Source of the DNA: Chiloscyllium plagiosum
Taxonomy: Eukaryota
Direction of reading: 5' to 3'
DNA length: 64,000 nt
Assembly: GCF_004010195.1 (NCBI RefSeq)
Contig: NC_057749.1
Span: 7,151,416-7,215,415, forward strand
Shown: positions 4,741-63,435 of the stretch, in pieces
Layout: each line of letters begins with the position of its first letter
How positions within the stretch are numbered: the first letter of the stretch is position 1
Notes under the pieces: generated by a model
Seen by the model: only the letters and a program-made list of their open reading frames with translations
The model's database searches: none
Told to the model about the DNA's origin: nothing
Program-made: the position numbers and the translations under genes

Positions 4741-4976
4741 CATGGTTCTGAAACGGTTAATGCTGAGGATTGCACCCAATCTGATGTTGTCATAAGGGTA
4801 GGTTAGGGCAGAGCAGCTCTGGAGCAGGAAGGAGAGAGACCTTCTGTCGAGGTCCCCTTTGTAACAATGTTGAAAATCCCAGAGCCAGTTGTCATTATAC
4901 AACATACTGCATCTTGTTTCAGAGGCTCTTCCAGTTTGAAGACCTGGTGATTTTCTTTGCTGCACTAGATAAAACA

Positions 4977-5187
4977 AAGTTAAAAATCACACAACACCAG
5001 GTTATAGATCAACAGGTTTAATTGGAAGCACACTAGCTTTCGGAGCGATGAAGGAGCGATGAATCACCTGATGAAGGAGTGTCGCTCCGAAAGCTAGTGT
5101 GCTTCCAATTAAACCTGTTGGACTATAACCTGGTGTTGTGTGATTTTTAACTTTGTACACCCCAGTCCAACACCGGCATCTCCAAAT
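4977..5187 (+). mobile_element. Fold-back Penelope-like terminal-repeat insertion, family B
   Basis: 75 bp inverted arms (4974-5048 and 5082-5156, 2 mismatches), a 31 bp unique 3' end, and a 12 bp TSD ctagataaaaca (4965-4976, 5188-5199). Confidence 0.85.
5065..5099 (+). ncRNA. Minimal type I hammerhead ribozyme motif (family B)
   Basis: CAC-CUGAUGA-A-GGAGU guc GCUCC-GAAA-GCU-A-GUG: stem I CAC/GUG, palindromic stem III AGCU, CUA cleavage triplet. Confidence 0.75.
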
Positions 5188-5789
5188 CTAGATAAAACAG
5201 GACATGTGAATCATCCCCGAAAGGAGGATGGTGGCAGTACAGCTATCTGATGGTAAGACTCTGGCTATCTCATACAAATGGTGCCAGCTATGCTTGCCTT
5301 TCGATATCATTTAGGTGAACCATTACAACACTACCAACTCCGCCATGGTTTTTGACTGATTCAGGCACTATGTAAGCAAAGTTTCTCTTAGGTACCTCAA
5401 CATTTGGGAGGTCAGAAAATCCATCGAGACCTTCAAGGCATCTGTAACTTCCATTCCTTATTGTATGCTTTGCTATCGATGCCACAATTCACTGACCTTC
5501 TCCACACTTTTTCAACCCCTCCCCACCTTTGGGATAGTGGACTGAGATAATTCAACTATGACTGAGGCCTGCCCACTGTGGTACATTAAAGGAGAAACGC
5601 TGGAATGGTACTGAGCAAAGAATGCAAGCTGCAAAAAAGGAGTTGAACTTAAAAGGGCATTAAAGGCTTGAAAGCCTCATGTGCAGTGAAGGAAAGTTTA
5701 TTGCCAATCCTGTCACCAACTTTGTTCAGAGGGAACTTCCAATAATATTGTCAACAGTTGCTTTTTGATCTGTTCTGCTTCATACAATT

Positions 5790-6125
5790 CCTTCAGTGTG
5801 GATGCAAGCCATTCTGCCCATCACATTTATACTGACCTTCTGAAGGCTATCCCACCCAGATCCATCCCAACCATGTAACCCTGGATTCCTCATGGCTAAT
5901 CCACCTAACCTACACAATCCTGGACACTATGGGCAATTTAGCATTTTTACTCCACCTGACTTGAACATCTCTGGATTGTGGGAGGAAACCAGAAAACACA
6001 AAAGAATACCCACACAGACACAGGGAGAACTTGCAAAGTGTAGGCAAACAGTCATCCAAGAGTGGAATTGAACTTGGTCTCTGGTGCTATGAGGCAGCAC
6101 TGCTGACCACTGAGCTACCATGTCG
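5790..6125 (-). mobile_element. HE1-type V-SINE (diverged)
   Basis: V-domain and head motifs. Confidence 0.85.
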
Positions 6126-6160
6126 AGTGGGTTGAGAACACATTGGTAATTCTGTCAGAT

Positions 6161-6486
6161 GTTAGATTAGATTAGATTCCCTCCAGTGTGGAAACAGGCC
6201 CTTCGGCTCAATAAGTCCACACCGACCCTCCGAAGAGCAACCCACCCAGACCCATTCCCCTATATTTACCCCTGACTAATGCACCTAACACTATGGGGCA
6301 ATTTAGCATGGCCAATTCACCTAACCTGCCCATCTTTGTTGACTGTGGGAGGAAACCGGAGGAAACCCATGCAGAACGGGGAAAATGTGCAAACTCTACA
6401 CAGACATTTGCCCGAGGGGGGAATTGAACCTAGGCCCCTGGTGCTGTGAGGCAGCAGTGCTAACCACTGAGCCACCGTGCCGCCCC
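6161..6486 (-). mobile_element. HE1-type V-SINE
   Basis: (TTAGA)n tail, V-domain and head ggggcggcacggtggctcagtgg. Confidence 0.92.
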
Positions 6487-6605
6487 AATGTGACCTTTTC
6501 TGTCCACTGGACTGGGCATAATGGGGCAATGGTTGAATGTTTCATTTGCAAGGTGGCACTTCTGTCTGTGCCACACTGCCTCAGTGCTGCACCAATACTT
6601 AAAGG

Positions 6606-7218
6606 TGTTATGGACTAGGCCAGACCCCTCAAAACATTTTTAAGCAAGTAACCCAGATCATTACTTTGCTATTTATTTTTAGCGAGGTGCATAGTAGATA
6701 TTCCCAGAGTAAACTAGCTAGTTCGACTGCCAAGTTTTAAACAGACAAAATTTACTTACAAAAGTATGGAATGAAATGCATAGAACAGAAAACAGAATAC
6801 CAGATAACTTACCCAATCTAAACCCGACTTAATGACGCTGTTCCGAAAATACTTGCAACAGTCCCAGTACACACATTCCTTAGCACAAACAGCAAACAAT
6901 GACACAGGCAACTTACAGTTCAAAATCATAAGGGCAGAAGGACAGAGAGAAGGCTTCCAGTTTCCACTGTGACTGTTACTCACCTCACTCCTGAACTGAA
7001 TTGAACTGCACAGCTAGAGAGCTGGCCACGTCCCTTGACTATATCAGGTTTTCAAAAGACCTTTCAGGCTTTTGGCCTGAAGCGCTATCTGTTCAGGTAA
7101 ACAACAAGGCTCCAATGAACCATTCAAATTCAGATATGATGGAGCCTGGCCAATTACCCCTTCTCTGAAAAAAAGACTCAAGGGCAAAGTAATTTCATAC
7201 CAGACCAGTTTTGTGACC
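6606..7218 (-). mobile_element. Solo LTR (probably Gypsy-type)
   Basis: Runs tgttatggactaggcc...ttgtgacc with a 4 bp TSD aagg (6602-6605, 7219-7222). Homologous in reverse orientation to 50751-51465. Confidence 0.7.
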
Positions 7219-8999
7219 AAGGTAAGATGTGATGGTATGGCAAGTAGCAACACTATCACAGATGAAATGAGGTTTGAAAGCCATACAAAAGAAAAAGAAC
7301 TGGTATTTAAGTAGGCTTTTACATGGGACAGCAGGGCTTCAAAAATGCCCCAATCATGTAAGAGTCCTTTGGATGTTACACTGGAGAGAACTGAAGAACT
7401 AAGTTGAGTCAAGCCACATTCCACAATTTTTATTGTGACCTCACTCTCAAAGCTGCCATTAATGTGTGGACCAAACACACCATCAAAGTCAAATGACCAT
7501 CTTTTCAAGCTGTAAATCCTGCATTTTTCCATATGGTCAATTAAGGAGCATGGGCCTGATTTATTAAATGTGACTGCTGCCTTTACTGCCTTCCTCCACA
7601 GTGAAAAAACATTGCGGTAAATTCTTAATCCATACAAATATTTCCACTGCAAGGACGACAGCCCAGAATCTACAACATAACTACCCTTCCATATTTTTGC
7701 TTTCTAAATTCACAACAAGCCTCCCACCGCCAACATCCCTATGTCCACCCCTGCCCACAGGTCACTAAAGAAAATATCATGTGAAGGCTTCAGGACCCTG
7801 GAGCAACCTGTTGAGGATGTCATGGAGCTATACATCACTGAGCATAAATAACACAGCATGGGTGTAAATAGTACACTCTAAAATGAGAGAGTCTTAAGAG
7901 CACACAAAGAATGCAACTACAAGACGAGAGCCTGATATATCTTTGATTACCACGTATAGCAGTATTTTGTATTAATGTGTAACAAATACTGTTACTTCAA
8001 AGTCAAAGCCTGAAGTCTGTTCTCAAATTAGTCCTGACTGTTCCTGAACCCAAATGCATTTTGTGGTATCAAACCACAGGATGAGAGAGAAACTACTTGG
8101 AAAGAAGGGGCAAAGATAAGTCTTTATACAATCCTAGCATGACAAACAGATGAACAACAAATTAAACAAGTAATGAGGAATCAGCAGGTAAATACCAAAC
8201 TCAATATGCTGGGAATGAGCGCATCAGGCTCATACAGTATTTTACCCCAGACTTAATGAAAATCAGCCCTAATTGCATGATTATTTTGTAATTATCTTTG
8301 TATTGCTTTGTACTCCCTTGGCTGGGTAAATTATTATGGATCCTGCATTCATTTTAATTTAACTGCTTCAGCCTTACCTCTCCACCTCACTGCCTGTCTT
8401 GTATAAGAGAAGACTGATCTTTGTTTCAGTTCATTCCAATAGATGTCATTTCTCTTTTCATTTTCTTGTTGCATTTATTACTCCCAACATTCAAAGTGAA
8501 AGGAAGGAATCTCTTAGGGATCTGAGTGGCGTGGGCGATGGTGAGATTTATGGCAAAATCAGACAAGAACTCTGTCGTGGTCTGTCTTGACTTCAGGAGG
8601 GTCTGTCTGCATCTTTTACACTCTGCCGAGTGGCAAAGCAAGTTTCTCACTACTTCAGGGGGATCATAGCTTGTCGAATGCTTTATTCATGATGTAATTT
8701 TCATCACCAACATTCAGCTTCTTACCTTACCAAGATGCCAAATAAGTTAGATGTTGAGAGATCCCCACATGCAAATCAAAGAGTGTGCCTGGTGACTTGA
8801 ACTTGCTGCTGGCTATAAGAAACCTTCATGTTTCTCAAGACCAAAGAGTATCTCAGAGGCGTAACCTACAGGCACCAACCACTCACATCCCGCATCCATG
8901 GACATTGGATCACTGTTAGCATTGACACCCAACACTTTCCATACCCTCACCAACCATTGTGGCCCCTCTCCCAGGAAGCACAGACTGGGCACACCCGAC

Positions 9000-10178
9000 A
9001 ACTAATAATTGGAGGATTGCTTTTCAGACTGGAGGCCTGTGACCAGTGGTGTGCCACAAGGATTGCTGCTGGATCCACTGCTCTTTGTCATTTACACAAA
9101 TTATTTGGACATGAATATAAGAGCCTCTAAATTAGCAGATGACACCAAAATTGGAAATGTGGAGGACAGTGAAGAAGGTTACTTCAAAGTACAACACGAC
9201 CTTGATCAGATGGGCCAATGGGCTGAGGAGTGGCAGTTTAATTTAGATAAATGTGAGGTGCTGCATTTTGGAAAGACAAATCAGAGCAGGACTTAAACAC
9301 GTAATTGTAAGGTCCCAGGGAGTGTTGCTTAACAAAAAGACCTTGGAGTGCAGGTTCATAGTTTCTTGAAAGTGGAGTTGCAGAGAGACAGGGTAGTGAA
9401 GAAGGCATTTGGTATGCTTTCCTTTATTGGTCAGTAGATTGAGTATAGGAGTTGGGTGGTCATGTTGCAGCTGTACAGGACATTGGTCAGGCCACTTTTG
9501 GAATATTGTGTGCAATTCTGGTCTCCCTGCTACGGGAAGGATGATGTGAAACTTAAAAGGGTTCAGAAAAGATTTACAAGGATGTTAGGCAGGGTTGGTG
9601 GGTTTGAGCTATAGGGAGAGGCTTAATAGGCTGGAGCTGTTTTCCCTGGAGAGTTGGAGGCTGAGGGGTGACTTCATAGAGGTTTATAAAATCATGAGGG
9701 GTATGGATAGGGAAAATAGATAAGATCTTTTCCCTGGGTCGGGGAGTCAATAACTAAAGGGCAGAAGTTGGGTGAGAGGTGAAAGATTTAAAAGAGACCT
9801 AAGGGGCAACTTTTTCAGGCATATATGGAATGAGTTGCCAGAGGAAGTGGTGGAGCCTAGTATAATTACAACATTTAAAAGGCATCTGGGTGGGTACATA
9901 AAAAGGAAGGGTTTAGAGGGATATGTCCAAATACCTTTCCAGATGCCCATTTACCAATGCCAAGTTTCTCAATTATATGAGTGCCTTTGTATGAAGGATT
10001 CCCCCAGGATCTCACAGGCAATGCCTTGCTCTCCAAACAGCCTGAAACTTTGGCTCCATTTCTCTCTCCACAAGTGTGGCAAATGAGACTAGATTAATTT
10101 CAGATATCTGGTTGGCATGGATGAGTTGGACCGAAGGGTCTGTTTTGTGCTGCACAGCTCTACGACTCTATGACTGTA
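9000..10178 (+). mobile_element. HER1/CR1 LINE, 3' 1.2 kb (RT C-terminal half, disrupted)
   Basis: WRPVTSGVPQG...LFVIY...ADDTKIG...DKCEVLHFG; ctctatgact-type tail. Contains a 150 bp foreign insert at 9931-10080. Confidence 0.93.
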
Positions 10179-22494: not shown

Positions 22495-23180
22495 CAGGAA
22501 CAGGAATAGGCCATTCAGCCCTTTGAGCCTGTTTCCAGATTCAATAAGATCATGACTGACCTGTAGCCTAATTGCCTTTGGCCCATATCCCTTAATATCT
22601 CTGGTTAACCAAAAAATTACCTATCACAGATTTAAATTGAACAACTGATCCTGCATCCACTGCCATTTTTGCAAGAGTATTCCAAAACATTTACCACCTT
22701 TTGTGCGTTGAAGTCATTCCTAACATCACTCCTGAACAGTCTGGCCCTAATTCTCAGACCATGTGCCCTCATTCTAGAATCACCAACCAGTGGACATAGT
22801 TGATTTTTGTCTACCATCTTTTCATGTTAATATCTTGAACACCTTCATCAGACCTTCACCATTGGTTGACTTTGAACTGCCCTCTGGGCAATTAGAGATA
22901 GCCAATAAATGCTGGCTTGGTCAGCGATGGCCTCATCTCATGAATGAAGTTTTAAAAATTCACCCCATGACCTTCTAAATTCAAACAAAAACAGGCCTAA
23001 TTTCTACAATCCCTCCTCATAACTAAATCCTTGAAGTCCAACTGTCATTCTTGTAAACATACATTGTACCTCTGCCAAGGCCAACCTTAGGTGTGGCCCA
23101 GATCTGCTCACAGTACTCCAAGTGGGGTCTAACCAGCGTTTAGTATAAATCAACACACCTTCTGCATCCTTATGCTCCAA
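22495..23180 (-). mobile_element. CR1 LINE 3' fragment
   Basis: Minus-strand ...VQCMFTRMTVGLQGFSYEE and tail aataggccattcagccc. Confidence 0.8.
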
Positions 23181-23310
23181 TCCTGATGAAGGGCTTTTGC
23201 CGAAACGCGATTTTCCTACTCCTCGGATGCTGCCAGACCTGCTGTGTTTTTCTAGCACCACTTTCATCAATGACTCTGATCCACAGCATCTGCAGTACTC
23301 ACTTTCGCCT
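23181..23310 (+). mobile_element. PLE terminal repeat, family A, sense arm only, starting at the hammerhead core
   Basis: tcctgatgaagggcttttgccgaaacg...ctcactttcgcct; matches 43541-43668. Confidence 0.85.
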
Positions 23311-23954: not shown

Positions 23955-24400
23955 AAACTAGGGGGCATAGCCTCAAAATAAGCAGGAGACTGGAAGAACA
24001 CAGCAAGCCAGGCAGCATCAGGTGGTGGGGAAGTCAACATTTTGGGTGTAACCCTTCTTCAGGACTTGGAGAATCTACCTTGGATTCCGGCATCTGCAGT
24101 TTTCTTTTTGTCTCAAACTAAGGGGGAGCAGATTTAGGACTGAGTTGAGGAGGAACGTCTTCACCCAAAGAGTTGTGAATCTGTGGAATTCACTGCCAGT
24201 GAAGCAGTTGAGGCTACATTGTTGAATGTTTTTAAGGCAAAGATAGATAGAATTTTGAAAAGTAAAGGAAGTAAGAGTTATGGTGAACGGGTGGGTAAAT
24301 GCAGCTGAGTTCACAAAAAGATCAGCCATGAGCTTATTAAATGGGTGGAGCAGGTTCAAAGGGCCAGATGGTCTATTCCAGCTCCTATTTCTTATATCAG
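23955..24400 (+). mobile_element. CR1 LINE 3' end containing a collapsed PLE fold-back (23983-24111)
   Basis: TSD ctcaaa(a/c)taag at 23972-23982 and 24112-24122. Confidence 0.8.
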
Positions 24401-24737: not shown

Positions 24738-25277
24738 TAAATCAAGCATTGAATTTCCCTCAATACAATAATGACTACATTGTCCAGAAAACCCTTTGGG
24801 GTTTCCTAAAGGTGCAACAAATCTTTTATAAATAAAACACCTCTACTTATTTTTCTTTTAATGTTGGGAAAATGGTGCACAAAGTCATTGAAATTATTGG
24901 ATAATTTGAATGAAGCACTTTTGCATTTGTTACCAATTGTAGTTTCTAACTGGGATTGAAGTTACAATCCTGGATGTACTTTTACATTCATACCAAAGTA
25001 GAAACATTTCACCAGGTGGAAAATCTTTAATGGTTTTACTTAATAAAACTCATTTTGACCATGTAAAAATCTCTCTTGTTAGAGGGTCAATGATGAGCCT
25101 AGAACCTGCAATTGTTTCTTTAGAACCTAAGTGCAAACATCACGATTACCCTGCGTTTGAAGGCAAGGTAGGATTTTGTCTAATATTGTTTGTACAGAAA
25201 GTCGTCTTTTCCGTTGAAATGGAGGTCCATTTTTAATGAGTCATCAGATTTCAGAAAAGCTCCCAACAATACACACA

Positions 25278-25483
25278 GGAGAAAGTGAGGTCTGCAGATG
25301 CTGGAGATCAAAGTTGAAACTTTATTGCTGGAACAGCAGAGCAGGTCAGGCAGCATCCAGGGAACAGGAGATTCGACGTTTCGGGCACAGGCCCTTCCTG
25401 AAGAAGGGCCTGTGCCCGAAACGTCGAATCTCCTGTTCCCTGGATGCTGCCTGACCTGCTGTGCTGTTCCAGCAATAAAGTTT
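25278..25483 (-). mobile_element. Fold-back PLE terminal-repeat insertion, family A
   Basis: 85 bp arms (25313-25397 and 25403-25487, 1 mismatch); 14 bp TSD caacaatacacaca (25264-25277, 25484-25497); hammerhead core at 25395-25428 (+). Confidence 0.9.
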
Positions 25484-26360
25484 CAACAATACACACACTC
25501 TTGCAAAGTTTTACCAGCCAGGCATAAAGCATCATTTGTGTGTGGCACGGAGAGAAACATTAGAGAGGGCGATTTCAAATACTCAGGACATTTCAGATCA
25601 ATTAAAGCGCAATCCCTTACTGGGGTGTAGCTGAGGTGGAATCCAATTTGTACACCCAACCAATATCAAGAATGAGGGGGGGATCTAACGAAACAGAGAA
25701 CATTCTCTATCGAGTAGAAGAAGGAACAATGCTATGGACAAAGGCTCATCAGACTTGAAATGTTAACTCTGTTTTCTCTTCACCAATGCCAGTACTGCTC
25801 AGCTTTTCCAGCAATTTCTGACTTTGTTTCAGGAAAGATGCTCTGGGTAGGGGTTATGATTTAGAACACAGGGATATACAGTCAGGGGAAGGGGCAGGAA
25901 ATGTACGATGAAGAAGTGGTCAAATTTCTTCACTGAGGGTGGTGATCCTTTGAAATTCTTTAACCCCGGAAGACTGTGGACTTAACTACCCTCTGGGTAA
26001 TTAGGGATGGGTAAGATATGGTGGCTGAGGCAATGATACCAACATCCTGTGAATCAATTTCAAAACAATTTTGAGATTCTATTGTTGATCTACATTGAAA
26101 TGTCTCTTGGATTCAAAGCTCATAACAATCTGCACTTTAAATGGTAAGCTAGATATATACAGGTATATGGGAAAAGAGGGATATGTTTAGGTGAAAGGAG
26201 TGTGTGAATGTACTTGGATAGAGCATTAATATCAGAAAGAACCTTTAAAACAGATAGCCTGTTTCTTTAACCCCAGAAGACTGTGGACTGATCATTGACT
26301 TTAAGCAGAAGTTGATAGATTCCCAGATACTAATGACATGAAGGGATATGGGATAATATT

Positions 26361-31614: not shown

Positions 31615-32160
31615 GTTGAGTCCAGATTCACCAAAGATCCTTAGGCAGTATCTTTCGAACCCACAACAACTTCCATATCGAAGGACAAGGGCAGCTGTTA
31701 CATGGGAACACCACCCTCTCGGAGCCAATCACCCAGTCAAAACGTGTGGTGCTAGAAAAGCACAGCAGGTCAGGCAGCATCCGAGGAGCAGTAGAGTCGA
31801 TATTTCTGGCATAATCCCTGGATCAGGAATATTCCTGATGAAGAGTTTATGCCCGAAACGTTGACTCTCCTACTCCTCGGATGCTGCCTGACCCACTGTG
31901 CTTTTCCTGTGCCACACTTTTCGACTCTGATCTCCAGCATCTGCCGTCCTCACTTTCTCCGAGGAACCAATCACCATCCTGACTTGGAAAGATATCGCTG
32001 TTCCTTCACTGTTGCTGGGTCAAAATCCTGGAATTCCCTCCCTGAAGGCATTGTGGATCCATCTACAGCACGTGGACTCAGTGTACTAGAAGGCAGCTCA
32101 CCATGACCTCCACAAGTGGAAACTAAGGATGAGCAATAAATGCTGGTCCAGCTCATGTCC
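31615..32160 (+). mobile_element. CR1/L2-group LINE (second family) 3' end
   Basis: Matches 18070-18460; interrupted at 31734-31962. Confidence 0.8.
31734..31962 (+). mobile_element. Fold-back PLE terminal-repeat insertion, family A (older)
   Basis: Imperfect arms around atcaggaatattcctgat; TSD gga(g/a)ccaatcacc (31721-31733, 31963-31975). Confidence 0.85.
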
Positions 32161-34114: not shown

Positions 34115-35597
34115 TCAACTCCAGCCTCCCCACTACTCTTGACCCACTCCAATTTGCCTATTGGACCAACAGATCTATGTCAGATGCCATATGACTTGCC
34201 CTTCACTCCTCCTTAGAACATCCTGACATCAAGAACAGTTACGTAAGAATCCTACTCATTGACTACAGTTCAGCCTTCAACACTATTATTCCCTTGAGAC
34301 TGATTACTAAACTTAGTGATCTCGGACTAAGCCCCACTCTCTGCAACTGGATCCTCAGTTTCCTGACCCACAGGCCACAATCAGTGAAGATTTCATCCTC
34401 ACTAACACACAACACTGAAGCACCTCCAGGAATGCATACTCAGCCCCCTACTGTACTCACTGTATACCCATGACTGCGTTGCCAAATACCAGACTAATGC
34501 CATTTACAAGTTCGCTGATGACTCCACCATAGTCATCTAATCTCAGATGGCGATTGAACAGACTTATAGGCGGGAGGTGGAAGACCCGGAAAAATGGTGC
34601 ACTGAGAACAAACTAGCTCTCAATGCCAGCAAAACCAAGGAACTCATTATTGACTTTCAGCGGGATGTTACTCATTTCCCCCCCTACACATTAACAGCAC
34701 AGAGGTGGAAGGAGTGGAGAATGTCAAGCTGCTGGGAGTGGTCATCAGCAACAAGCTTTCTTGGACTCTTCATGTGGATGCACTGGTTACAAAGGCCCAG
34801 CAATGTTTTTTCTTCCTCAGGCAGCTAAGAAATTTGGCATGATGGCGAATACCCTTGTCTACGTTTATTAGTGTGCCATCGAGAGCATTCTGTCTAGATG
34901 TATCACTACCTGGTATGGCAATTGTACCGTACAAGATTGGAGGCGGTTAAGTGAGTGGTGAACCCGGCCTGGACAATCACAAAGGCCAACCTCCCATCGA
35001 TGGAATCCACCTACCAGGCCTGCTGTCAAAAAAAGGCCACCAGCATTCTCAAAGATCCATCCCACCCTGGGAATGTTTCTCTACAACCTCTACCATCGGG
35101 GAGACGGTACAGAAGCCTGAACACATGCACCCGCCAGTTTCGAAACAGTTTCTACCCTATTGTTGTTAGAATATTGAATGGACTCATAAAAACTTAAGAC
35201 TAAAGTGGTGCTGGAAAAGCATAGCAGGTCAGGCAGCATTCGAGGAGCAGGAAAATCGATGTTTTGGGCAGGAGCCCTTCATCAGGACTTCATTCCCTGA
35301 TGAAGGGCTTTTGCCCGAAATGTCAATTTTCCTGCTCCTCAGATGCTGCCTGACCTGCTGTACTTTTCCAGCATCACTCTAATCTTGACTCTGATCTCCA
35401 ACATCTGCAGTCTTCACTTTCGCCTCATAAAAACTTAACATTTGCCTGTACCTGTGTTTTTGTTTTTGCCGCTGTTTACCTATTATTTACTATCTATGCT
35501 ACTTAATTATGTGAGCTGCCTGTATTGCTCACAAGAGAAAGCTTTTTACTGTGCTTTGGTACATGTGACAATAAATTCAATTCAATTCATTCCAATT
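34115..35597 (+). mobile_element. Rex1/Babar-type LINE, 5'-truncated RT pseudogene
   Basis: [60 protein letters not shown]; (aattc)n tail. Interrupted at 35198-35423. Confidence 0.88.
35198..35423 (+). mobile_element. Fold-back PLE terminal-repeat insertion, family A
   Basis: Inverted arms around cttcatcagg-acttcattc-cctgatgaag; perfect 15 bp TSD ctcataaaaacttaa (35183-35197, 35424-35438). Confidence 0.9.
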
Positions 35598-41104: not shown

Positions 41105-44100
41105 TCTATCATTTTCCATCACTATTTTAAAACTAATGGTTGCTGGCCCCAAAGTGCTCCCCCACTGACACTTCAGTCACCTGCCCTGCCTTATTTCCCA
41201 AGACTAGGTCAAGTTTTGCACCTTCTCCAGTAGGTACATTCACATACTGGATCAGAAAATTTTCTTGCACACTCTTAACAAATACCTCTCCACCTAAATC
41301 CTTAACCCATCTAGTCCCAGTCTATGTTTGCAAAGTTAAAATCCCCTATCATAACCACCCTATTATTCTTACAGATAACTGAAATCTCCTTACAAATTTG
41401 TTTTTCAATTTCCCGCTGACTATTAGGGTGCCTATAACGCAATGCCAATAAGGTGATCATCCCTTTCGTATTTCTCAGTTCCATCCAAATAACTTCCAGG
41501 AAGTATTTCCAGGAATATTCTCCCTCAGTACAGCCATAATGCTGTCCCTTATTAAAACACCACTCCCCCTCCTCTCTTACCTCCCTTTCTATCCTTCCTG
41601 GAGCATTTGTATCCTGGAACATGAAGCTGCCAGTCCTGCCAATCCCTGAGCCATGTTTCTGTAATTGCTATGATACCCCAGTCCCACGTTCCTAACTATG
41701 CCCTGAGATCATCTGCCTTCCCTGTTTGGCCTCTTGCATTGACACAAATGTAGTTTAATTTATCAGTCCTACCTTGTTCTCTGCTTTGTTCCTGCCTGCC
41801 CTGACTATTTGACTCGCTTCTTTTCTCAACTGTACCAGTCTCAGACTGATTTCTTTTCGCAGTATCTCCCTGGGTCCCACCTCCCCTCCTTACTAGTTTA
41901 AATCCTCCTGAGCAGCTCTAGCAAATCTCCCTGCCAGTATATTAGTCCCCTCCAATTCAGGAGCAATCCATCCTTCTTCTTCAGGTCACTTCTACCCAAG
42001 AGATTTCAATGATCCAAAAATGTGTATCCTTCTCCCATATAACAACTCCTCAGCCACGCATTCATCTGCTCTATCCTCCTATTCCTACCCTCACTAGCTC
42101 GTGGTACCTGGAGTAATCCAGGTATTACTACCCTCAAGGACCTCCTTTTTACATTCCTGTCTAAATTTCTACATTCTCCCTTCAGAATCTCATCGTTTTC
42201 CCTTCCTATGTCATTGGTACCAATGTGTACAATGACCTCCTGCTGGTCCCTTTCCCCTTTGAGAACATTTTGTACCCTCTCTGAGACATCCTTGATCCTG
42301 GCACCAAGGAGGCAACACACCATTCCGATTTTTCACTGCTGGCTGCAGAAACGTCTGTTTGTGCCCCTGAGTAGAGAGTCCCCGATCGCTTGGAACCCGA
42401 CGTACCCCTCATTTCATTACACCCAGTCTTGATACCAGAAACTTGGCTGTTCGTGCTACATTCCCCTGAAAGTCCATCACCCCCAACATTTTCCAAAACA
42501 GCAGACTTGTTTGGAATACGGATAGCCACAGAAGACACCAGTGCTACCTGCCGCATCTGCTCTCAGTAGGACCAGTTCCACTACAGAACATGTTAGATGA
42601 CCTCCTTCTTTAAAGGCCACAATTCCCCCTCCCATGTTGATGATGCCCTCCAGTGCATCTCATCCACTTCCCGCACCTCCGCCCTCAAACCCCACCCCTC
42701 CACCCGCAACAAGAACAGAACCCCCTCCGGTCCTCACCTTACACCCACCAACCTCCGTATGCATTGCATCATCCTCCACCATCACCTACAAACGGACCCC
42801 ACCACCAGAGATATATTTCCCTCCCCACCCCAATCCGCTTTCCGTAAAGATCGTTCCCTCCGGGACTACCTGGTCAGGTCCACACCCCCCAATAACTCAC
42901 CATCTCCTCCTGGCACCTTCCCCTGCCACCGCAGGAATTGCAAAACCTGCACTCACACCTCTCCCCTCACCTCCATCCAAGGCCCCAGAGGAGCCTTCCA
43001 CATCCATCAGAGTTTTACCTGCACTTGCACACATGTCATTTACTGCATCTGTTGTTCCCGATGCGGTCTCCTCTACATTGGGGAGACGGGACGCCTACTC
43101 GCAGAGCACTTCAGAGAACATCTCCGGGACACCCACACCAACCAACCCCACTGCCCCGTGGCCAAACACTTCAACTCCCCTTCCCGTTGTGCCGAGGACA
43201 TGCAGTTCCTGGGCCACCTCCATCGCCGCTCCCTTCCCACCCGACGCCTGGAGGAAGAACGATTCATCTTCCACCATGGGACTCTCCAACACCATGGCGT
43301 CAATGTGGATTTCAGCAGTTTCCTCATTTCCCCTCCCCCCACCTTACCCTAGTTCCAATCTTCCAGCTCAGCACCACCCTCATGACCTGTCCCACCTGTC
43401 CATCTTCCTTCCCACCTAACCGCTCCACCTTCCCCTCTGACTTATCACCGTTACCTGCACCTCCATTGACCTAGTGCACTCTCCCCCACAGCCCCACCCC
43501 CTCCCATTTATCTCTCTACCCCCGAGGCTCCCAGCCTCATTCCTGATGAAGGGCTTTTGCCCAAAATATCGATTTTCTTTCTCCTTGGATGCTGCCTGAC
43601 CTGCTGTGCTTTTTCAGCATCACACTCTCAACTCTAATCTCCAGCATCTGCAGTTCTCACTTTCACCTTCCTGTACTACCCACCTACCTCTCCTACCTTT
43701 CTTGGAGTTAACTCATCTACCTGACTGTATCTGCAACTTTACTCCCTTCCTAAAACTGCCATCTATCACACACTCTTGCTCATGTAAATTCCTCATTGCC
43801 TCTAACTGTCGCTCCAACTGATCCATTCAATATGACAGGATTCGCAACCAACAACATTTATTGCGGATATAATCCTCAGTAACCCTTAAACTCTCCCAAA
43901 ACTCCTACATATGACAAGAAGAGCATTTCACTCGACTAAAGGCCATTTTGCTCCTTCCAAATTACAGATGCAGAAAATAACACCGTCTTATTGCTCTACA
44001 AAACACTGCTCCAGGCTAGCTTAATATGTATGGCTTATATTTTTAAAATTTAATCAAGAGACAGATCCCGATAAAAACAAATAATCAAGAAAGAACCCAT

Positions 44101-49880: not shown

Positions 49881-49904
49881 AATAATCAATAATGTTTCTT
49901 ATGT

Positions 49905-50052
49905 CTGGCAAAAGCCCTTCATTCCTGATGAAGGGCTTTTGCCCGAAACGTTGATTTTGCCTGTCCTCGGATGCTGCCTGAATTGCTGTGCTCTTCCAGC
50001 ACCACTAATCCAGAATCTGGTTTCCAGCATCTGCAGTCATTGTTTTTACCTC
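49905..50052 (+). mobile_element. PLE family A insertion with a short (16 bp) fold-back
   Basis: ggcaaaagcccttcat-tcctg-atgaagggcttttgcc; perfect 14 bp TSD aatgtttcttatgt (49891-49904, 50053-50066). Confidence 0.88.
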
Positions 50053-50212
50053 AATGTTTCTTATGTTCCCTGCCTCCAGCATAGTCTTACTTGTGTCCCG
50101 TTTACTTTGCTCTCAGTTAAGAGGACCCATTCCTTCTCTTGCACATCTTAATTCACATTCATTTTAACATATTTTTCTCTTCCATCGCCATGAACAACCC
50201 TTTTATCTTTTG

Positions 50213-50436
50213 AAACAAAAGCAGACATTGCTGGAAAAGCTCAGCAGGTCAGGCAGCATCTGTGGAGAGAAATCAGAATTAACGTTTCGGGTCGAGTGAC
50301 CCTCAGGAAGGGTCAATGGTCCCAAAATGTTAATTCTGATCTCTCTTCATGGATGCTGCCAGACCTGCTGAGTTTTCCAGCAATGCCTGCTTTTGTTTCT
50401 GATTTCCAGCGTCCAAAGTTCTTTCAGTTTTTGTTT
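50213..50436 (+). mobile_element. Fold-back PLE terminal repeat, family C
   Basis: About 90 bp imperfect arms around gtgaccctcaggaagggtca, plus a unique 3' end. Confidence 0.8.
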
Positions 50437-50534
50437 CACTTTGACTTTCGCACTCGGCCTCTGCCTCTGTCAAAATTAAAAAGAAAATTCTCAACACCTT
50501 TCAGTTCTGAAGAAATCATACTGGATCCAAAATT

Positions 50535-53110: not shown

Positions 53111-53993
53111 ACTGGTGTCCCTCTTCATCTGTGTGCATCATTTGCTAGTCCTTTAATCCGTCCTCTTTCAGCAGTTGGTGTAGAGTCCTAACTTTCTCTT
53201 CACCCACTCTGCATTTTTCCAAAATTTGATGAAATGCCTAATATCCAGCCTTCAGTTCCAGCAGCTTTTTCCCTGCTGTTTTTAGACTTCTGAATGGACC
53301 TCTCAAATTTTATATTTAATGTTGATCCTGCTCTTTGTGCACTTTCTCTGCAGCCATCCATTATATTCCTCACTCTATTCCATGATCCTAATGCACAATC
53401 AAAACAAAACTTTTCACTCTACCTTGGTACGGGGCAGTAATAAATCAAATCAAATCACATCAAAAGAAGGCTCAACCCACAGCATCATGAGGAAGTTCTG
53501 AGGAAGGGTCACTGGATCTGAAATGTTAACTCTGATTTCTCTACACAGATGCTGTCAGACCTGCTGAGATTTTCCAACAACTTTTTATTTTGCATTATGA
53601 TGCATCATCACCCTTTACAATGCTGCCTGAACTATTGCTTAGCTCCAGCCCGTGCTGACAGTCAAATGGAAAAAAAAAGTTTTCTGCTTCTTTCTTCTTC
53701 TCAATTCGACAGAATTTCATTAGGAAAAAAAATAAAATTGGTCTTTGCAATGTTGGAAAGGGAGCTTAATCTTTTGCATTCAATTAACCGAATCATCTCT
53801 CTAGATTAAATTTGTTTTCGATGTTTCTCACTCTTCAATGGAAGATACTATTCATCTTGCTTTATGGTGTCATCTCCCTCAAATTTGTCAATTATTAAAC
53901 CACCTATCACATCGCTACACCTGCACATTTCTGCCACCAGTTGGACTTTCTTATGTTGCAGCAAGGGCTGAGTGGCCTTCTGTTATTCCCCAC

Positions 53994-54183
53994 AAACAAA
54001 AACAGAAATAGCTGCAAAATCTCAGCAGGCCTGGCAACATCTGTGCAGAGAGAAAGCAGAGTTAACGTTTTGGGGTCCCGTGTTCTGAAGAAGGGTCACT
54101 GGACCTGAAACATTAACTCTTGTTCTGTCTCCACAGATGCTGCCAGACCTGATGAGGTTTTCCAACAGTTTCTGTTTTCGTTT
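53994..54183. mobile_element. Fold-back PLE terminal repeat, family C (further single arms at ~25745, 31040, 46880, 51635, 52505, 53495)
   Basis: Inverted arms; core gttctgaagaagggtcactggacctgaaacattaac. Confidence 0.8.
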
Positions 54184-54284
54184 ACTCATTCTCTTTGTGT
54201 GTGTGTTTTGTGTTTGTACATATAGCTCAACAACTACAATCTCACTGATGTGGGAAATATACTTTTCCCTTAAGTTTCATAAGT

Positions 54285-54612: not shown

Positions 54613-54674
54613 AGGAAAAGACCTTTAAAATTGACAGGCATTGGCCTAACTTGTCTTGTTCACTTCAAATGGAG

Positions 54675-55020
54675 CTCTCCATTGGGGAGACACGAAACCA
54701 ACTTGCAGAACGTTTCAGAGAACATCTCTGGGACACATGCACTAAACAACCCCACCACACCGTGGCTGAACACTTTAACTGCCCCTCTCACTCCGCCAAG
54801 GACATGCATGCCCTGGGCCTCCTCCACCATCAAACCCTAACCACCCGACGCCTGGAGGAAGAACACCTCATCTTCCACCTTGGGACCCTCCAACCACACT
54901 GGATCAATGTGGGTTTCACCAGTTTCCCCATTTCCCCTTCCCCCACCTTATCCCAGATCTAACTTGCCCGAAACGTTGATTTCGCTGCTCCTCAGATTTC
55001 CAGCACCTTTGGTTTTTTTT
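54675..55020 (+). mobile_element. Neptune-type PLE GIY-YIG fragment with a collapsed terminal repeat
   Basis: IGETRNQLAERFREHL..VAEHFN..RRLEEEHLIFHLGTLQP. Confidence 0.88.
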
Positions 55021-58460: not shown

Positions 58461-58467
58461 CCATGAT

Positions 58468-58795
58468 TGGGATGGCATGGTGGCTAAGTGGTTAGCACTA
58501 CTGCCTCACATCGCCAGAGACCTGGGTTCAATTCCACCCTTAGGCGAGTGTCTGTGTAGAGTTTGCTCATTCTCCCCGTGTCTGTGTGGGTTTTCTCCAG
58601 TTTCCTCCCACAGTCCAAAAACGTGCAGGTTAGGTGAATTGGCCATGTTAAATTGCCCAGTGTTCAGGGTTGTGTGCATTAGTCAGGGATTAAATTTAGG
58701 GGAATGGGTCTGGGTGAGTTACTCGTCAGAGTGTCACAGTGGACTTGTTGGATTGAAGGGCCTGTTTCCACACTGTAGGGAATCTATGATTCTAC
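58468..58795 (+). mobile_element. HE1-type V-SINE
   Basis: Head, V-domain and tail. Confidence 0.9.
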
Positions 58796-58969
58796 TTCAA
58801 AAGATAATTCTTGAACTGCAACGAGCCTTGGAAAATCCTGAGGTTGCGAATGGAGAATCGATGAACGTTACACAGAAAAATCCTCCTTTGTACTGTGCTC
58901 TTCCCAACTGTTCAGCACCCCAATGTACATTGTAATTAATGAAATACTTTTGAACTGCAGTCATTGAAA

Positions 58970-59240
58970 CATTGAAAGTAGGAGCAGGAATAGACTTTCC
59001 AGTCTATCAAGCTTGCTCTGCTATTCCTTTTGGTCCAAAGCATCCTGGTCCTGTTAGCCCTAATAATTATATCTAACTTCTTGAAAACATTCAATGTTTT
59101 GACCTCAGTGCTTTCTGCTAAAGGGATTTCTACAGGATCCCCACTCTCTGTGGGAAAACATTTCTCCTCATCTCAATCTTAGATTACCCTTGTATCCTTA
59201 GACTGTAACCCCTGGTTCTGGACTCCCCAGTCATTAGGAA
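58970..59240 (-). mobile_element. CR1 LINE 3' fragment
   Basis: gtaggagcaggaatag...tttctcctcatctc...cccctggttctggactcccc. Confidence 0.7.
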
Positions 59241-59439
59241 CATCCAGTGTAGTCAGTGTTGTAGTGAAGGTAAGCCAGCAGTACATTTGGTAGTAATGAC
59301 TATCATAAAGAAATGAAACCTGGATCCAGCAGAGGTGTTGACTCAACATTTGGGTTGCTAGACAGTCAACGACAACCACAACTGAAAACAAATGAGTGAG
59401 GTCGCGATATAAACTGACATCTAAGGAAAAGATTCAAAA

Positions 59440-59960
59440 TGGAGCTCGGAGTTCATGAGTTGAAGCTGTTGAACTGAATATTGAGTCCTTAAAGGTATAA
59501 AATGCTTAGTTGCAAGATGAGATGCTGTCCCTTAAGGTTTTATTGCACTTCACTGGAACTCTGCAGCAGGAAAAGACATTATATTTTAACACAAAAGGAA
59601 GATGGTGAATTAAAATGGCAAAAGACTGAAGAGTTGGTATCATTCTTGCAGATAAAGAGGAGGCGTTCTGCAGTCACCCAGTTGATGTCCCCAGTGAAAA
59701 GTAGAACACATTGTGAATACAGCAAGACAAGATTGAAAGTACAAGTACTTGTTTCACTTTGAAGGAATGTTTGGGGTCTTGGTTTAGGAGGTGGTACTCT
59801 ACCTGCATCTGCATGGAAAGATGCCATGGAGTAGAGAGTAGTTGTGGTTGGCTGACTAGCAACTCAAGTGTTGTGGAGGGCATGGCTCCTTTTGAATCCC
59901 GACAGGCAGCAGGGTGAAGATGCGTTTGGCAGTGTCTGAAGGCAACAGAATTGGCAGAGA
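59440..59960 (-). mobile_element. Old Neptune-type PLE fragment
   Basis: Reverse ...ggactcaatattcagttcaacagcttc resembles 40010-40040; YIGET-like remnant near 59680. Confidence 0.6.
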
Positions 59961-59964
59961 ATGA

Positions 59965-60432
59965 TTAAGCTGGAGAGGGTTCAGAAGAGATTCACCAGGA
60001 TGGTGAATATGGAAAACTTTGAGTTATAAAGAAAGGCTGGGTAGGCTAGGGCTTTTTGCGCTGGAACATAGGACGTTGAGAAGTGACCTTAAAGAAGCTT
60101 ATAAAGTAATGAAGGATAGAGGTAGAGTTAATGGTAGCTGTCCTTTCCCTATGATGCAGAATATCAAGACTAGAGGGCGGAGAGAAGAGAGACTGAGGGG
60201 CATTTTTTTTACACAGAGGGTGGTTTGCATATGGAAAGAACTTCCTGAGGAAGTGGTGAATGTGGGCATGATTACAATGTTTAAAAGACATTTGGATAAG
60301 TATATGAATAGGAAAGGGTTGGAGGGATATGGGCCAGGAGCAGGCAGCTGGGACTAGTTTAGTTTGGGATTATGTTCGGCATGGACTGGTTGGACCGAAG
60401 GGTCTGTTTCCGTGCTGTATGACTCTATGACT
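59965..60432 (+). mobile_element. HER1/CR1 LINE 3' end
   Basis: SYKERLGRLGLFALE..FFTQRVVCIWKELP; tgtatgactctatgac tail. Confidence 0.9.
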
Positions 60433-60729
60433 TGATGATTACAGAGACTGGTGGTATGGAAGGTATGGATAAAGGGAATTCTATTGTGGTTACTTGAGAA
60501 AGAAGGAGGGAAGAACACAAAAATATTGGAAATGTAACAGACACAGTCAAGAGCCCTATTAATCATTGTGGTTGAGGAATAAAAGAAGTCACCTCAGGAA
60601 CACTACTGTGGAAAGTCACACCATCACAAGAGATACTTGAGAGACAAAATAACTGTGAATATGGAAGGGAGTCCTTATAGGGTCAAAGGTATGAGAAACC
60701 ACTGTCAAGATAGCTGTAGGAGACAGTGT

Positions 60730-61140
60730 TCTACCGATGTGAATGTCACTGGCAAGGTCATCATCTTAATTCCCTTTGAAAAGGTGGTGATGAATCACCC
60801 TGATGAACCATGTGGTCTACATATTTCGAGAAAGAAAGCAGGCTAACACAGCCGAGGGGCTTTTTCAGCTGTTTTGGAAGCAGTTAAGGGTCAATCCTGT
60901 TTCTATGGATCTGGAACCATATGTAGACCAGACTGGGTAAGGACAGTACATTTACTTCCCTGAAGATCATCAGTGAACCAGATGGATTTTTATGGCAATA
61001 CTATAGTCTCACAGTCAAATGAAACTAATACTTTATTTGAAATTTATTAAGTAAACCTAAAACCATCAGTCTACCTGGTGAGATTTAATTTCCTTGTCTC
61101 GAATGCAATGTTGCAATCCTCTGAGATTACGAGGCCAGTA
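60730..61140 (-). mobile_element. tRNA-derived SINE, family B (diverged)
   Basis: atgtagaccagactgggtaaggac...cttccctgaag..agtgaaccagatgg. Confidence 0.6.
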
Positions 61141-61892
61141 TTTTTAAGTGGCTATTGAACTTTTAGAAGTTAAATGTGGAGATTTGAAAGTACAATTAAT
61201 CCCATAACTTTTCCTTTCCTCGTTGCCTTAATTCCATTTTGTGCTCAGTCCAACCTTCTCACCAACTCAGAAACCTCCTGGGCAATGCCCACAATAGGAA
61301 CCCCATTCACTAACCAGGTCACTAGGGAGTGACATTGATGCATTTTAATGCAGGGCTTCAGAAAGTTATCAATCTTTAGGAGATTAAAAACACCTTTAGT
61401 GGAAAAAAAACTGCTGCACTGGTCTCATTTGAATGCCAGTAATTATTCCATCTCGTTGTAGCAATCAACTCAATCATCGTGTTGCTTCCAGTATCAATAC
61501 ACAGAGATTACTACTTATTTGATTTTGTGCTGATGAAATTGACCTGAAATTAACAAGTAGATCATCAGCAAATTGGATACTGTAACTTTAATTGGGTTTC
61601 GCTGAGCCACAGCACTTCTGGCCCCTGCAGTGCATCATTTCCGAACAGTGACAAAAGTTACAGAGCTTCTGCAAGGAACACTGGCAGCTACAGAACTCGC
61701 AGAATATTTTGTTTAGTTTCTTTATGAGCATCATTGTTAAAATAAGATCTGAGGGAAGTTATTAGAAGTAGATGCTTTTGGTAATGAAGAAAAATTAGAT
61801 CCACTGGCTAGTGTGTCATGAGCTACAAGAAATAAAGTTGCGATCATTGCTTGTTAACACAGAGCTTGTGTACTGCTGAAAAGAGAGATGCA

Positions 61893-62200
61893 CTATCAAA
61901 GGTTTTCATCCTGCACTCATCAGGACAGGTGCAAGAATGCCAAATTTCAAAGGAAGCAACAACATATGCTTCCTGAGAACAGGCTGCTGATTGGTTGGCA
62001 AGTCAACATTGTTTGTTTGAGATTTTGCCATGGAGGATGTACCAGGAACTCTTATTCCAAATTATAATTAAAAAAAAAAGCACAATGGTAGGACTTGTTC
62101 TTTGTGCTTGCAGAGGATAGGTCACTGTGCAGTATAAGCTATTGTTCCCTTTGAAATTTGGCACTCTTGCATCTGTCCTGATGAGTACAAAATGAAAAAT
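61893..62200. mobile_element. Inverted-repeat element with outward-facing hammerhead-like cores (family E)
   Basis: Arms ~61903-61966 and ~62132-62198, each with tttgaaatttggca.tcttgca.ctgtcctgatgagt.ca..atgaaaa. Confidence 0.65.
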
Positions 62201-62928
62201 TAAGATCATAACGAAAAGAATAAAGGATATATATTATATACATATATTACACATATACAGCACACCTGAGCATTACATCTCTGTAAAGTAGTATGTTCAT
62301 AATACATACATGATGTTGTGTTCAAAGTATATAAGCATTATAGAGTGATTATTAACGTGGGAAAAGGTGGTGGGGAATTTGGTTTGAGTGAAAAGAAAAA
62401 CATGCTCTCTGAAGCTTGATACTTCTGCCAATTTTAATAAAACATTTTTCTTCCGTTTCTTGGCAGTAGTCAACCGCAGTTGATCGAGAAGTTGATTGAC
62501 TTCTCAGGACTTCAGTACCAGGCTGGGATTGTGAAGCAGAAAAGACTGAGGAAGGCAATAAAGACTGGAGTAGAGATCAATAGGGAATTGGAGCCAGGAA
62601 ACACTGGTGAAACCAAGGTCAGAGTAGATCAGAAGTCTGGAGGTCAGGGGATTGATACATGAATCAGAGGAGGTAGATGAAGCAGGTATGCTTGGCTCTG
62701 ATTGGCTAAACCATTTACCTCCTGGATCTTTGCCTCCCTTTAACTGGTGAGATTCCTGATGCTTGGAAAACTGAGTTGACCGAGTTTAAATTTAAAATGG
62801 TCATGAGGTATGAGCCATGCAGTCTCAGTACAATATTGAAACTGATAACCCACTTCCTGGGAGCACGTTAGTTTCCTGTTCCCAGTTAAACTCAGAAGTG
62901 ATTACGTTTAGATTTTATTGTCGCATGT

Positions 62929-63435
62929 TGTTGTGTCACCATGGTCTTACCAGACCATAGGGGCTGCTCTCTCAGAGAGAAGCAGCTGGTGGTGATTTAA
63001 CCTGAGGGCCAGCAGATTGCAGGCGAGGGAAGAGGTTGAAAAGGAGAGTCCTTCATGGTAACCTCAAACTGGTGATGGGAATTGAACTCATGCTGTTGGT
63101 ATCATAAGGAGAAAGTGAGGTCTGCAGATGCTGGAGATCAGAGATGGAAATGTGTTGCTGGAAAAGCGCAGCAGGTCAGGCAGCATCTAGGGAACAGGAG
63201 AATCGACGTTTCGGGCATTAGCCCTTCTTCAGGAATGAGGACAGTTTGTCCAGCAGGCAGCCTGCTGGACAAACTGTCCTCATTCCTGAAGAAGGGGTAA
63301 TGCCCGAAACGTCGATTCTCCTGTTCCCTAGATGCTGCCTGACCTGCTGCGCTTTTCCAGCAACACATTTCCATCTGTTGGTATCATAGTGCGCTGCATA
63401 CCAACAATCCAGCCAACTGAGCTAAACCGATTCCC
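62929..63435 (-). mobile_element. Full-length tRNA-derived SINE, family C
   Basis: Head gggaatcggtttagctcagttgg (A box), gagttcaattccc (B box), caacaa tail; TSD tgt(c/t)gcatgt (62919-62928, 63436-63445). Confidence 0.8.
63107..63374 (-). mobile_element. Fold-back PLE terminal-repeat insertion, family A (young)
   Basis: 117 bp arms (63142-63258 and 63260-63376, 1 mismatch, 1 nt loop); 14 bp TSD ctgttggtatcata (63093-63106, 63375-63388). Confidence 0.92.

Follow-up and report, generated by a model that had tools for sequence, protein, structure and literature searches.

Short hammerhead-bearing fold-back repeats in a Chiloscyllium plagiosum genome are miniatures of the Penelope-like element insertion unit

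What kind of mobile element leaves behind a short, non-coding hairpin with a hammerhead motif at its apex, and how is the hairpin made? The question is raised by a 64,000-nt stretch of DNA from Chiloscyllium plagiosum (RefSeq assembly GCF_004010195.1, contig NC_057749.1, positions 7,151,416 to 7,215,415 of the forward strand), hereafter the window, in whose own numbering coordinates are given unless a locus (L) is named. A preliminary description of the window had listed seven such palindromic insertions (at 4977, 23983, 25278, 31734, 35198, 49905, and 63107) and presented them as a class of their own, derived from Penelope-like elements (PLEs) by a reverse transcriptase (RT) that halts just past the ribozyme and copies back on its own cDNA. 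We found that these fold-backs are real and very abundant, yet they are a miniature of the PLE insertion structure that has already been described and not a new class of mobile element. The reading that we prefer, with a probability of about 0.5, is that they are ordinary insertion units of endonuclease-bearing PLEs in miniature, produced from a short RNA by a mechanism involving two cDNAs.

All seven sites were read directly, and the architecture given in the preliminary description was present at each of them. The common layout consists of a target-site duplication (TSD) of 11 to 15 bp, an inverted arm, an apex beside CUGANGA...GAAAC, a sense arm that ends ~126 nt 3' of CUGANGA, and the second copy of the TSD. 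An inverted-repeat search of the window recovered these palindromes, with arms of 19 to 117 nt that are 81 to 99% complementary, and local inverted structures of at least 40 nt numbered 10 in the window versus 0 in each of 20 dinucleotide-preserving shuffles. The microhomologies reported at the junctions (aca, caac, and ct) were present as well.

Two young fold-backs, both with arms 99% alike, carry their complete arm on the minus strand. The first (25264..25497, minus strand; element 25278-25483) is flanked by the 14-bp TSD caacaatacacaca (25264-25277 and 25484-25497), and its complete, tail-bearing arm (25277-25405) exceeds the tail-less arm (25395-25487) by 39 nt. The second (63093..63388, minus strand; element 63107-63374; 14-bp TSD ctgttggtatcata) has 117-nt arms only 1 nt apart, with the complete arm at 63107-63240, the apex ~22 nt 5' of CATTC, and an arm difference of 37 nt. 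On the plus strand, the fold-back at 35183..35438 (element 35198-35423; arms 86%) shows a 15-bp TSD (ctcataaaaacttaa, 35183-35197 and 35424-35438), an inverted arm at 35198-~35288, and a sense arm at ~35290-35423 with CUGAUGA at 35297; the arm difference is again 39 nt. The same value was obtained for the old plus-strand copy at 31721..31975 (element 31734-31962; arms 81%), where the inverted arm (31735-31830) meets the sense arm (31831-31962) with a gap of 0 nt and the TSD, ccaatcacc, is exact over 9 bp and extends to 13 bp with 1 mismatch. The inverted arm is as short as 19 to 21 nt in the plus-strand copy at 49891..50066 (element 49905-50052; 14-bp TSD aatgtttcttatgt).

The two remaining sites are a decayed copy and a member of another family. 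In the former (23972..24121, minus strand; element 23983-24110), the minus-strand arm at 23990-24064 runs from the hammerhead to about position 1065 of the reference introduced below, and the opposite arm is internally deleted with its 3' terminus retained, which bears out the earlier remark that this copy had lost most of its sense arm; the TSD is ~11 bp long with 1 mismatch (ctcaaaataag / ctcaaactaag). The latter (4965..5199, plus strand; element 4977-5187) represents a separate young family, A. It has a 12-bp TSD (ctagataaaaca, 4965-4976 and 5188-5199) and palindrome arms at 4974-5048 and 5082-5156 that are 97% alike, and its sense arm (5060-5187, with CUGAUGA at 5068) extends 31 nt past the palindrome. 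Genome-wide, the 40 scored copies of family A were 97 to 100% identical, and an adjacent arm on the opposite strand was found in 20 of the 40. Beyond the seven sites, the window also contains a solo copy, i.e., one with no inverted arm, at 23178..23310 (plus strand), which starts 5 nt 5' of CUGAUGA (23183) and reaches the family 3' end, and two plus-strand fold-backs of a third family, C, which derives from a different PLE represented in locus L032: one at 50212..50440, and one at 53991..54185, with 61-nt arms 68 nt apart.

Where does the repeated unit come from? A 5'-truncated fragment of an autonomous PLE occupies 42553..43668 (plus strand) and consists of an open frame (42597-43352), a 3' untranslated region, and then the short-copy unit itself (43538-43668). 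These last 131 nt aligned at 79 to 85% to the copies at 23178, 25278, 31734, 35198, 49905, and 63107. Six of the seven listed insertions belong to the family of this 3' end, and the 4977 copy, of the separate family, gave no alignment to 43538-43668. The open frame contains a linker zinc-finger-like motif and a GIY-YIG-type endonuclease; it is 76% identical to a Chiloscyllium punctatum protein and 39% identical (E = 3e-35) to P0005, a protein scoring both RVT_1 and GIY-YIG. Pfam returned 0 families at E<=0.001 for the window frame alone, so its PLE membership rests on these homologues. RT-bearing PLE copies were present in loci L016, L021, L032, and L036. The claim that the insertions derive from the 3' ends of PLEs is thus well founded, the short unit being the last 131 nt of a PLE fragment. 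The Cys/His-rich motif FPCHRRNCKTCTH precedes the GIY-YIG region of the fragment; such a motif, a Neptune trait, is also found in the Nematis clade according to the clade descriptions of Craig et al. (2021, PMC8557442). The N-terminal PLE domain had at least 150 genomic matches, many of them inside open frames of 800 to 1200 aa, and stop-free frames of this length at so many matches indicate that the autonomous family may still be active.

Is the asymmetry of the arms a rule? The DNA examined amounted to 357,843 nt in total of the 3.56-Gb assembly and comprised the window, twenty arbitrary 10-kb stretches, and 29 loci of ~3.1 kb matched by the 35296-35424 arm, these last coming from 40 scored of 880 candidates. 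The PLE fragment 42553-43668 served as the BLAST reference (ref 1-1116), with CUGAUGA at ref 991-997 and the 3' end at ref 1116. Among 113 matches, 61 arms reached the 3' end and represented 59 copies (two palindromes with two complete arms were counted once each), of which 30 are unbiased and 29 were selected by similarity to one query. Fold-backs made up 16 of the 30 unbiased copies. Of 28 fold-backs, 20 had the outer end of the inverted arm within ref 1074-1092, and the other 8 were divided between ref 1012-1042 (5) and ref 1106-1116 (3). The variable length ascribed to the inverted arm was therefore a small-sample impression, since genome-wide its outer end has a strong mode ~39 nt before the 3' end.

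An exact-match search for TSDs of at least 9 nt at the predicted boundaries succeeded in 19 of 53 short copies, namely 14 fold-backs and 5 solos; those copies without an exact TSD may be older, or their predicted boundaries may be off. TSD lengths were 9 to 16 bp in the fold-backs and 9 to 17 bp in the solos, which were 124 to 144 nt long. The sense arm was longer than the inverted arm by 30 to 44 nt (median, 39) in 13 of the 14 TSD-bounded fold-backs, matching the published PLE tail of 30 to 40 bp at one end; the exception is the 49905 copy, with a difference of 107 nt. The inner point recurs elsewhere. One solo (L047; TSD of 13 bp) ends there, and in four loci (L019, L008, L006, and L037) an inverted piece is anchored at the inner 3' point and its apex-side part is missing. 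Longer inverted arrangements were seen in L012, L036, and L038. This anatomy leaves next to no room for a DNA-transposon origin as miniature inverted-repeat transposable elements (MITEs), for which the hairpin shape alone speaks: the termini are asymmetric, with arms unequal by ~39 nt, the TSD varies from 9 to 17 bp, one end is the 3' end of a retroelement with an open frame, and solos exist with no inverted repeat. The earlier judgment that the units are not MITEs thus stands, as neither symmetric termini nor a constant short TSD was found.

Are the arms inherited together, or are they made anew? If the hairpin element itself were transcribed and retrotransposed from a palindromic or retrozyme-like master, with 5' truncation shortening the inverted arms, the modal inverted arm of ~90 nt and the sense arm of ~131 nt could be read as one full-length unit and the short apex-anchored arms as its 5' truncations. 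Animal retrozymes have indeed been argued to be PLE derivatives in a preprint by Li, Clavereau and Pollet (2026, 10.64898/2026.07.22.740005). The arms tell against such a master, which we regard as improbable. In an alignment of both arms of 26 fold-backs with 25 solos, inverted and sense arms had the same majority base throughout columns 1 to 86, with no arm-specific fixed difference, and fold-backs as well as solos carried each of two subfamily-diagnostic alleles. When the fold/solo label was mapped on a tree of 53 sense arms (28 from fold-backs and 25 solos), it changed 19 times, compared with 17.9 +/- 2.0 in 1000 shuffles, 78% of which had 19 changes or fewer; this tree comes from a short alignment and is weakly resolved. 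The apex junction and its filler differ in nearly every copy, with -11 to +9 nt between the arms in most. Head-to-tail junctions gave 29 exact matches in 3.56 Gb (0 for the control), which speaks against tandem arrays feeding circular RNAs, and no tandem pair was present among the 59 copies examined. The suggestion of a self-propagating, retrozyme-like family is accordingly not borne out.

At each of the two diagnostic columns, the arms of the same copy agreed in 24 of 26 fold-backs. Disagreements between arms were concentrated at CpG columns, and these differences explain the arm identities, down to 74 to 86%, of old copies. A nearest-neighbor test placed the partner arm closest for at least one arm in 9 of 26 fold-backs and at rank 2 to 63 of 75 elsewhere; it says little in a family that is old and star-like and for which 29 sense arms had been picked for their likeness to one query. 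The differing apex junctions, the lack of clustering of fold/solo status on the tree, and the TSD around the whole unit support the conclusion that the arms were formed at each insertion from a single RNA source, and not from a palindromic master; on this point the preliminary description, which had the inverted arm made de novo, was right. The same data bear on whether a second copy might later have homed, inverted, into the 5' end of an existing one, as could be imagined from the anole PLE complex, which is reported to make nicks in vitro in AT-rich DNA, whether within its own terminal region or at other sites (Frangieh et al. 2024, PMC11167929). A single TSD around the whole unit in 14 of 14 fold-backs with a TSD, the subfamily alleles shared by the arms, and the 97 to 99% likeness of the arms in young copies make two separate insertions highly improbable.

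The apex lies beside a minimal hammerhead motif, which in the PLE fragment occupies 43538..43571 (plus strand) and begins with CAUUC as the strand of a short helix I. CUGAUGA (43543-43549) follows with one additional A, then helix II (GGGC/GCCC), GAAA, and a palindromic ACGU before the predicted cut; the fragment itself shows AAAAUAUC, a decayed form of GAAACGUC. The majority of 77 aligned arms reads CCTGATGA-A-GGGC-TTTT-GCCC-GAAA-CGTC. Helix II differs but stays paired in the three families (GGGC/GCCC, GGAG/CUCC, and GGUC/GACC). Judged by its sequence, the motif agrees with what has been published for the minimal hammerhead ribozyme (min-HHR) of PLEs, having both boxes, the extra base after position 9, the G10.1-C11.1 pair, and ACGU. 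Rfam gave no family at gathering score in the whole window; its hammerhead models had no match at E<=10 in 35150-35450, where only microRNA hairpin models appeared, all below their cut-offs. A type III hammerhead with a hairpin upstream of CUGAUGA was considered and rejected by eye, with 4 extra nt between hairpin and core and a helix III lacking a partner strand. The 5' ends of the copies did not pile up at the predicted ribozyme cut (ref 1018/1019), which agrees with the use of uncut RNA as a template in vitro (Frangieh et al. 2024, PMC11167929).

Where, then, do the copies begin? The 30 unbiased copies all have an intact 3' end, and 26 of them showed no extension upstream of ref 975. The ends of solos, and those of both arms in fold-backs, lie between ref 981 and 990 and peak at ref 987, the A of CATTC, and most of the 59 copies start within a few nt of a point 4 to 5 nt upstream of CUGAUGA, whether they have an inverted arm or not. 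In DNA contigs from a whole-genome run, loose ends pile up at the same two boundaries of the element. This shared 5' end is far sharper than ordinary 5' truncation and is independent of the inverted arm.

In the PLE fragment, a putative core promoter, recognized from its motifs only, can be placed at 43507..43543 (plus strand), where TTTATC (43507-43512) lies at -32 from A 43539, within the initiator-like TCATTCC; the start of most short copies coincides with the equivalent of this A or falls close to it. The initiator pattern is YYANWYY, which TCATTCC fits. TTTATCT stands 32 nt upstream of this A in exact form in 6 of 8 longer copies, with one mismatch in L027 and in decayed form in L021, and it is kept across two subfamilies although the intervening 20 nt are unrelated. 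The initiator-like motif, the conserved TTTATC box, and the solos sharing the 5' end suggest that this end is the start of a short RNA transcribed from longer copies and not an RT stall; the idea that the RT halts just past the ribozyme loses its ground accordingly, given that solos share an end lying on the A of TCATTC with a TTTATC box 32 nt upstream. An origin of the 5' end in a splice acceptor was also considered, and it was rejected on account of the AG not being conserved in the CUGAAGA subfamily.

These features can be combined into a mechanism. The template would be a short RNA of ~131 nt, beginning at the initiator-like TCATTC that closely precedes the minimal hammerhead of the PLE terminal region and including the region where the PLE RT starts. 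Its sources would be longer, 5'-truncated PLE copies such as 42553-43668; the short copies have no upstream TTTATC box, and most of them are therefore probably dead on arrival. The PLE protein would nick both target strands 9 to 17 bp apart, giving rise to the TSD. One nick would prime a cDNA from an outer start site, the element 3' end, and in about half of the insertions the other nick would prime another cDNA, which starts at an inner site lying ~39 nt upstream. The two cDNAs would proceed on the same short RNA to its 5' end and be joined head to head there, either through 0 to 9 nt of filler or by microhomology over a few nt. The resulting insertion would consist of a TSD, a tail-less inverted arm, an apex at the RNA 5' end, a sense arm with a tail of 30 to 44 nt, and the second TSD.

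The apex is also where a single cDNA could have turned back. A target-primed cDNA from the 3' end might reach the hammerhead, or stall past it, then snap back, copy itself, and rejoin the target by microhomology. Such copy-back would account for symmetric apexes and for both arms having the same source, for the overlap of 1 to 4 nt between the inverted arm and the left TSD in 9 of 14 copies, and for the few apex-anchored short arms with outer ends at ref 1012-1042 (5 of 28). The apex junction of the 49905 copy, gcccttCATtcctgATGaaggg, with its CAT/ATG microhomology, matches precisely the product expected of self-priming through 3 paired nt and a loop of 5 nt, and the same type of junction occurs in L002. 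We nevertheless consider copy-back unlikely, although still the most serious alternative. Nothing in it stops copying 30 to 44 nt before the end of the template, yet copying stops there in 13 of 14 fold-backs. When completeness at the apex was compared in 28 copies, the tail-less arm was longer in 9, the tail-bearing arm in 8, and the two were equal within 2 nt in 11. The tail-less arm would be the secondary one in copy-back, and a tail-less primary cannot give a tail-bearing copy. An intramolecular hairpin cannot form the blunt junctions of the 31734 and 63107 copies, with 0 to 1 nt between the arms, and since solos share the 5' end, an RT halt peculiar to fold-backs is unnecessary. Together with the four inward-truncated pieces anchored at the inner point, these counts run against the simple copying back proposed in the preliminary description. 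Either arm may be the more complete at the apex, which favors two cDNAs over simple copy-back, and the two-cDNA model accounts for the ~39-nt stop, the 9 longer tail-less arms, and the blunt junctions; we infer that two cDNAs are formed rather than one copied-back cDNA.

Several observations weigh against the two-cDNA reading. An independent choice of start sites should commonly give fold-backs with the tail on both arms or on neither, but ~3 were found of the former and 0 of the latter, in an anchor set that required one complete arm; an extra assumption of coupling, e.g., a dimer on one RNA, is thus needed. Copy-back can also yield the microhomology junctions of the 49905 copy and L002. Many copies are old, with arms 74 to 90% alike, and some apex asymmetries may be later deletions in the palindrome center. 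The sample is small, with 59 copies, of which 29 were chosen by similarity to one query. The longer inverted arrangements in L012, L036, and L038 showed no clear TSD and are only suggestive. A tblastn search with public PLE proteins of the 358 kb found no copy with an N-terminus, and L051, a locus with an N-terminal match, is preceded by unrelated DNA, lacks a hammerhead over ~1.25 kb, and contains Ns in the 3' half. Finally, poly(A) single-cell RNA data, which are uninformative on small or non-polyadenylated RNAs, showed read-through on both strands of the solo at L023:1350-1780 and no pile-up of starts or ends: one run gave 1755 reads on both strands, 99% of them continuing into unlike flanks, and a second gave no reads.

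In run X19, the solo interval L023:1497-1631 had both sense and antisense poly(A) single-cell reads, nearly all of which run on into flanks that differ. The family is thus represented by transcripts of both orientations, which, together with the fold-backs, put ample double-stranded RNA on offer.

A stronger form of the two-cDNA reading, which we put forward tentatively and would ourselves bet against, is that the fold-backs record a coupled, both-strand target-primed reaction. A dimeric PLE complex would act on one promoter-defined RNA, with outer and inner starts 39 nt apart and cDNAs meeting at the capped 5' end.

How do these units relate to known systems? The published PLE insertion unit, in the structural accounts given by Craig et al. 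(2021, PMC8557442) and Goubert et al. (2022, PMC8969392), consists of a pseudo-long terminal repeat (pseudo-LTR) with an adjacent inverted, 5'-truncated copy and a tail of 30 to 40 bp at one end. The shark units share with it the heavy 5' truncation, the abutting inverted 5'-truncated copy, the extension of 30 to 44 nt on one arm, the hammerhead in the terminal region, and the GIY-YIG-type frame in longer copies. They differ from these accounts in that the dominant form is ~131 nt long (~225 nt with the inverted arm) and non-coding, both arms end at one sharp 5' point, abundance is extreme, and the tandem pseudo-LTR arrangement is rare (29 exact junctions). Opposite-strand min-HHR pairs were moreover noted in 2014. 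The claim to a class of its own can thus not be kept, at least against these published descriptions.

In their survey of metazoan PLE ribozymes, Cervera and de la Pena (2014, PMC4209133) describe min-HHRs as mostly single and dispersed, attribute them to truncated PLEs, and mention Schistosoma opposite-strand pairs 100 to 700 bp apart. The motif found here has the same CUGANGA and GAAA boxes, G10.1-C11.1 pair, ACGU replacing helix III, and short helix I. The 2014 paper contains no analysis of the inverted pairs, their TSDs, or their 5' and 3' ends, and its sections on these motifs do not name sharks. Animal non-LTR retrozymes, as characterized in the recent preprint (10.64898/2026.07.22.740005), are likewise short, non-coding, hammerhead-bearing derivatives of PLE termini and occur as dispersed monomers. 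They are, however, defined there by head-to-tail arrays and presumed circular RNAs, whereas the shark units form inverted pairs with rare tandem junctions (29). Sm-alpha of Schistosoma mansoni is a hammerhead-bearing element resembling a short interspersed nuclear element (de la Pena et al. 2017, PMC6155905). Compared by description and not by sequence, it is similar in that it is an abundant non-autonomous retroposon of small size carrying a type I hammerhead; it differs in having a canonical hammerhead with helix III, and the passage concerned describes no fold-back form.

A biochemical parallel to the proposed mechanism comes from the anole Poseidon PLE protein: in vitro, its RT starts at two internal sites, and both strands are cleaved and extended (Frangieh et al. 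2024, PMC11167929). The link from two start sites and both-strand extension to inverted copies is absent from that paper (PMC11167929) and is proposed here. In both systems, two 3' termini a few tens of nt apart define the tail, the hammerhead lies ~60 to 100 nt upstream, and there is no sign of ribozyme-cut RNA as a template. The anole element belongs to another PLE clade and another host.

A further analogy is the twin priming of L1 that Ostertag and Kazazian reportedly set out in 2001, in which a second priming event on the other target strand is said to leave an inverted 5' segment within one TSD, with microhomology at the junction. In L1, the inverted segment is the part upstream of the sense segment, whereas the two arms of a fold-back correspond to one and the same portion of the RNA, and a preferred internal site would here serve the second primer. 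One longer arrangement, L038, shows an exact inversion of the L1 type with a small deletion: at L038:537-1197, inverted ref 896 to 484 is joined to sense ref 929 to 1116, and ~30 nt are missing at the joint. This suggests that internal priming on the second strand also occurs away from the preferred site. Among open-access papers and bioRxiv preprints, we found none on these units in sharks, on their sharp 5' end, or on a two-strand or twin-priming account of the PLE inverted copy.

Three other features of the window may be mentioned. Directly upstream of the PLE fragment, minus-strand frames at 41311-42332 look like those of a long interspersed nuclear element (LINE): we take one to be an endonuclease-like end (...MIGDFNFANIDW) and another to resemble an esterase-like ORF1 (...IVHIGTNDIG...). 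If the LINE label is correct, the PLE fragment seems to abut this copy or to sit inside it. Near the family C fold-back at 53991-54185, a further piece of a PLE endonuclease region lies at 54651-54962 and matches residues 358 to 460 of P0001 at 60% identity. At 61903-62198 there is an unrelated inverted repeat with 68-nt arms, 84% complementary and 160 nt apart, around an A-rich center. It has no similarity to the PLE families and may be a MITE-like element.

What follows for genome annotation and for PLE biology? Extrapolated from 30 copies in ~351 kb, the genome contains on the order of 10^5 copies, or about one tail-bearing copy per 12 kb. As hairpins of 130 to 230 bp, they resemble MITEs or microRNA precursors and should be masked as PLE fragments. 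The fold-back apex at 35249-35334, for instance, scored 31.4 bits against the Rfam mir-980 model, for which the gathering score is 47; such scores, at this apex and at equivalent ones, are an artefact of shape and could seed false microRNA annotations. How PLEs integrate, and in particular why they leave inverted copies and a one-sided tail, is still described as undefined by Craig et al. (2021, PMC8557442). Four regularities constrain models of it: the fixed 39-nt asymmetry of the arms, the single source of both arms, the truncation of either arm at the apex, and the sharp 5' end on an initiator-like motif. If the coupled both-strand reaction is true, it would account at once for two features of PLE insertions that have long lacked an explanation, the inverted copy and the one-end tail, and the shark copies, numbering hundreds of thousands, above all those of family A with their 97 to 100% identity, would be a ready data set on PLE integration.

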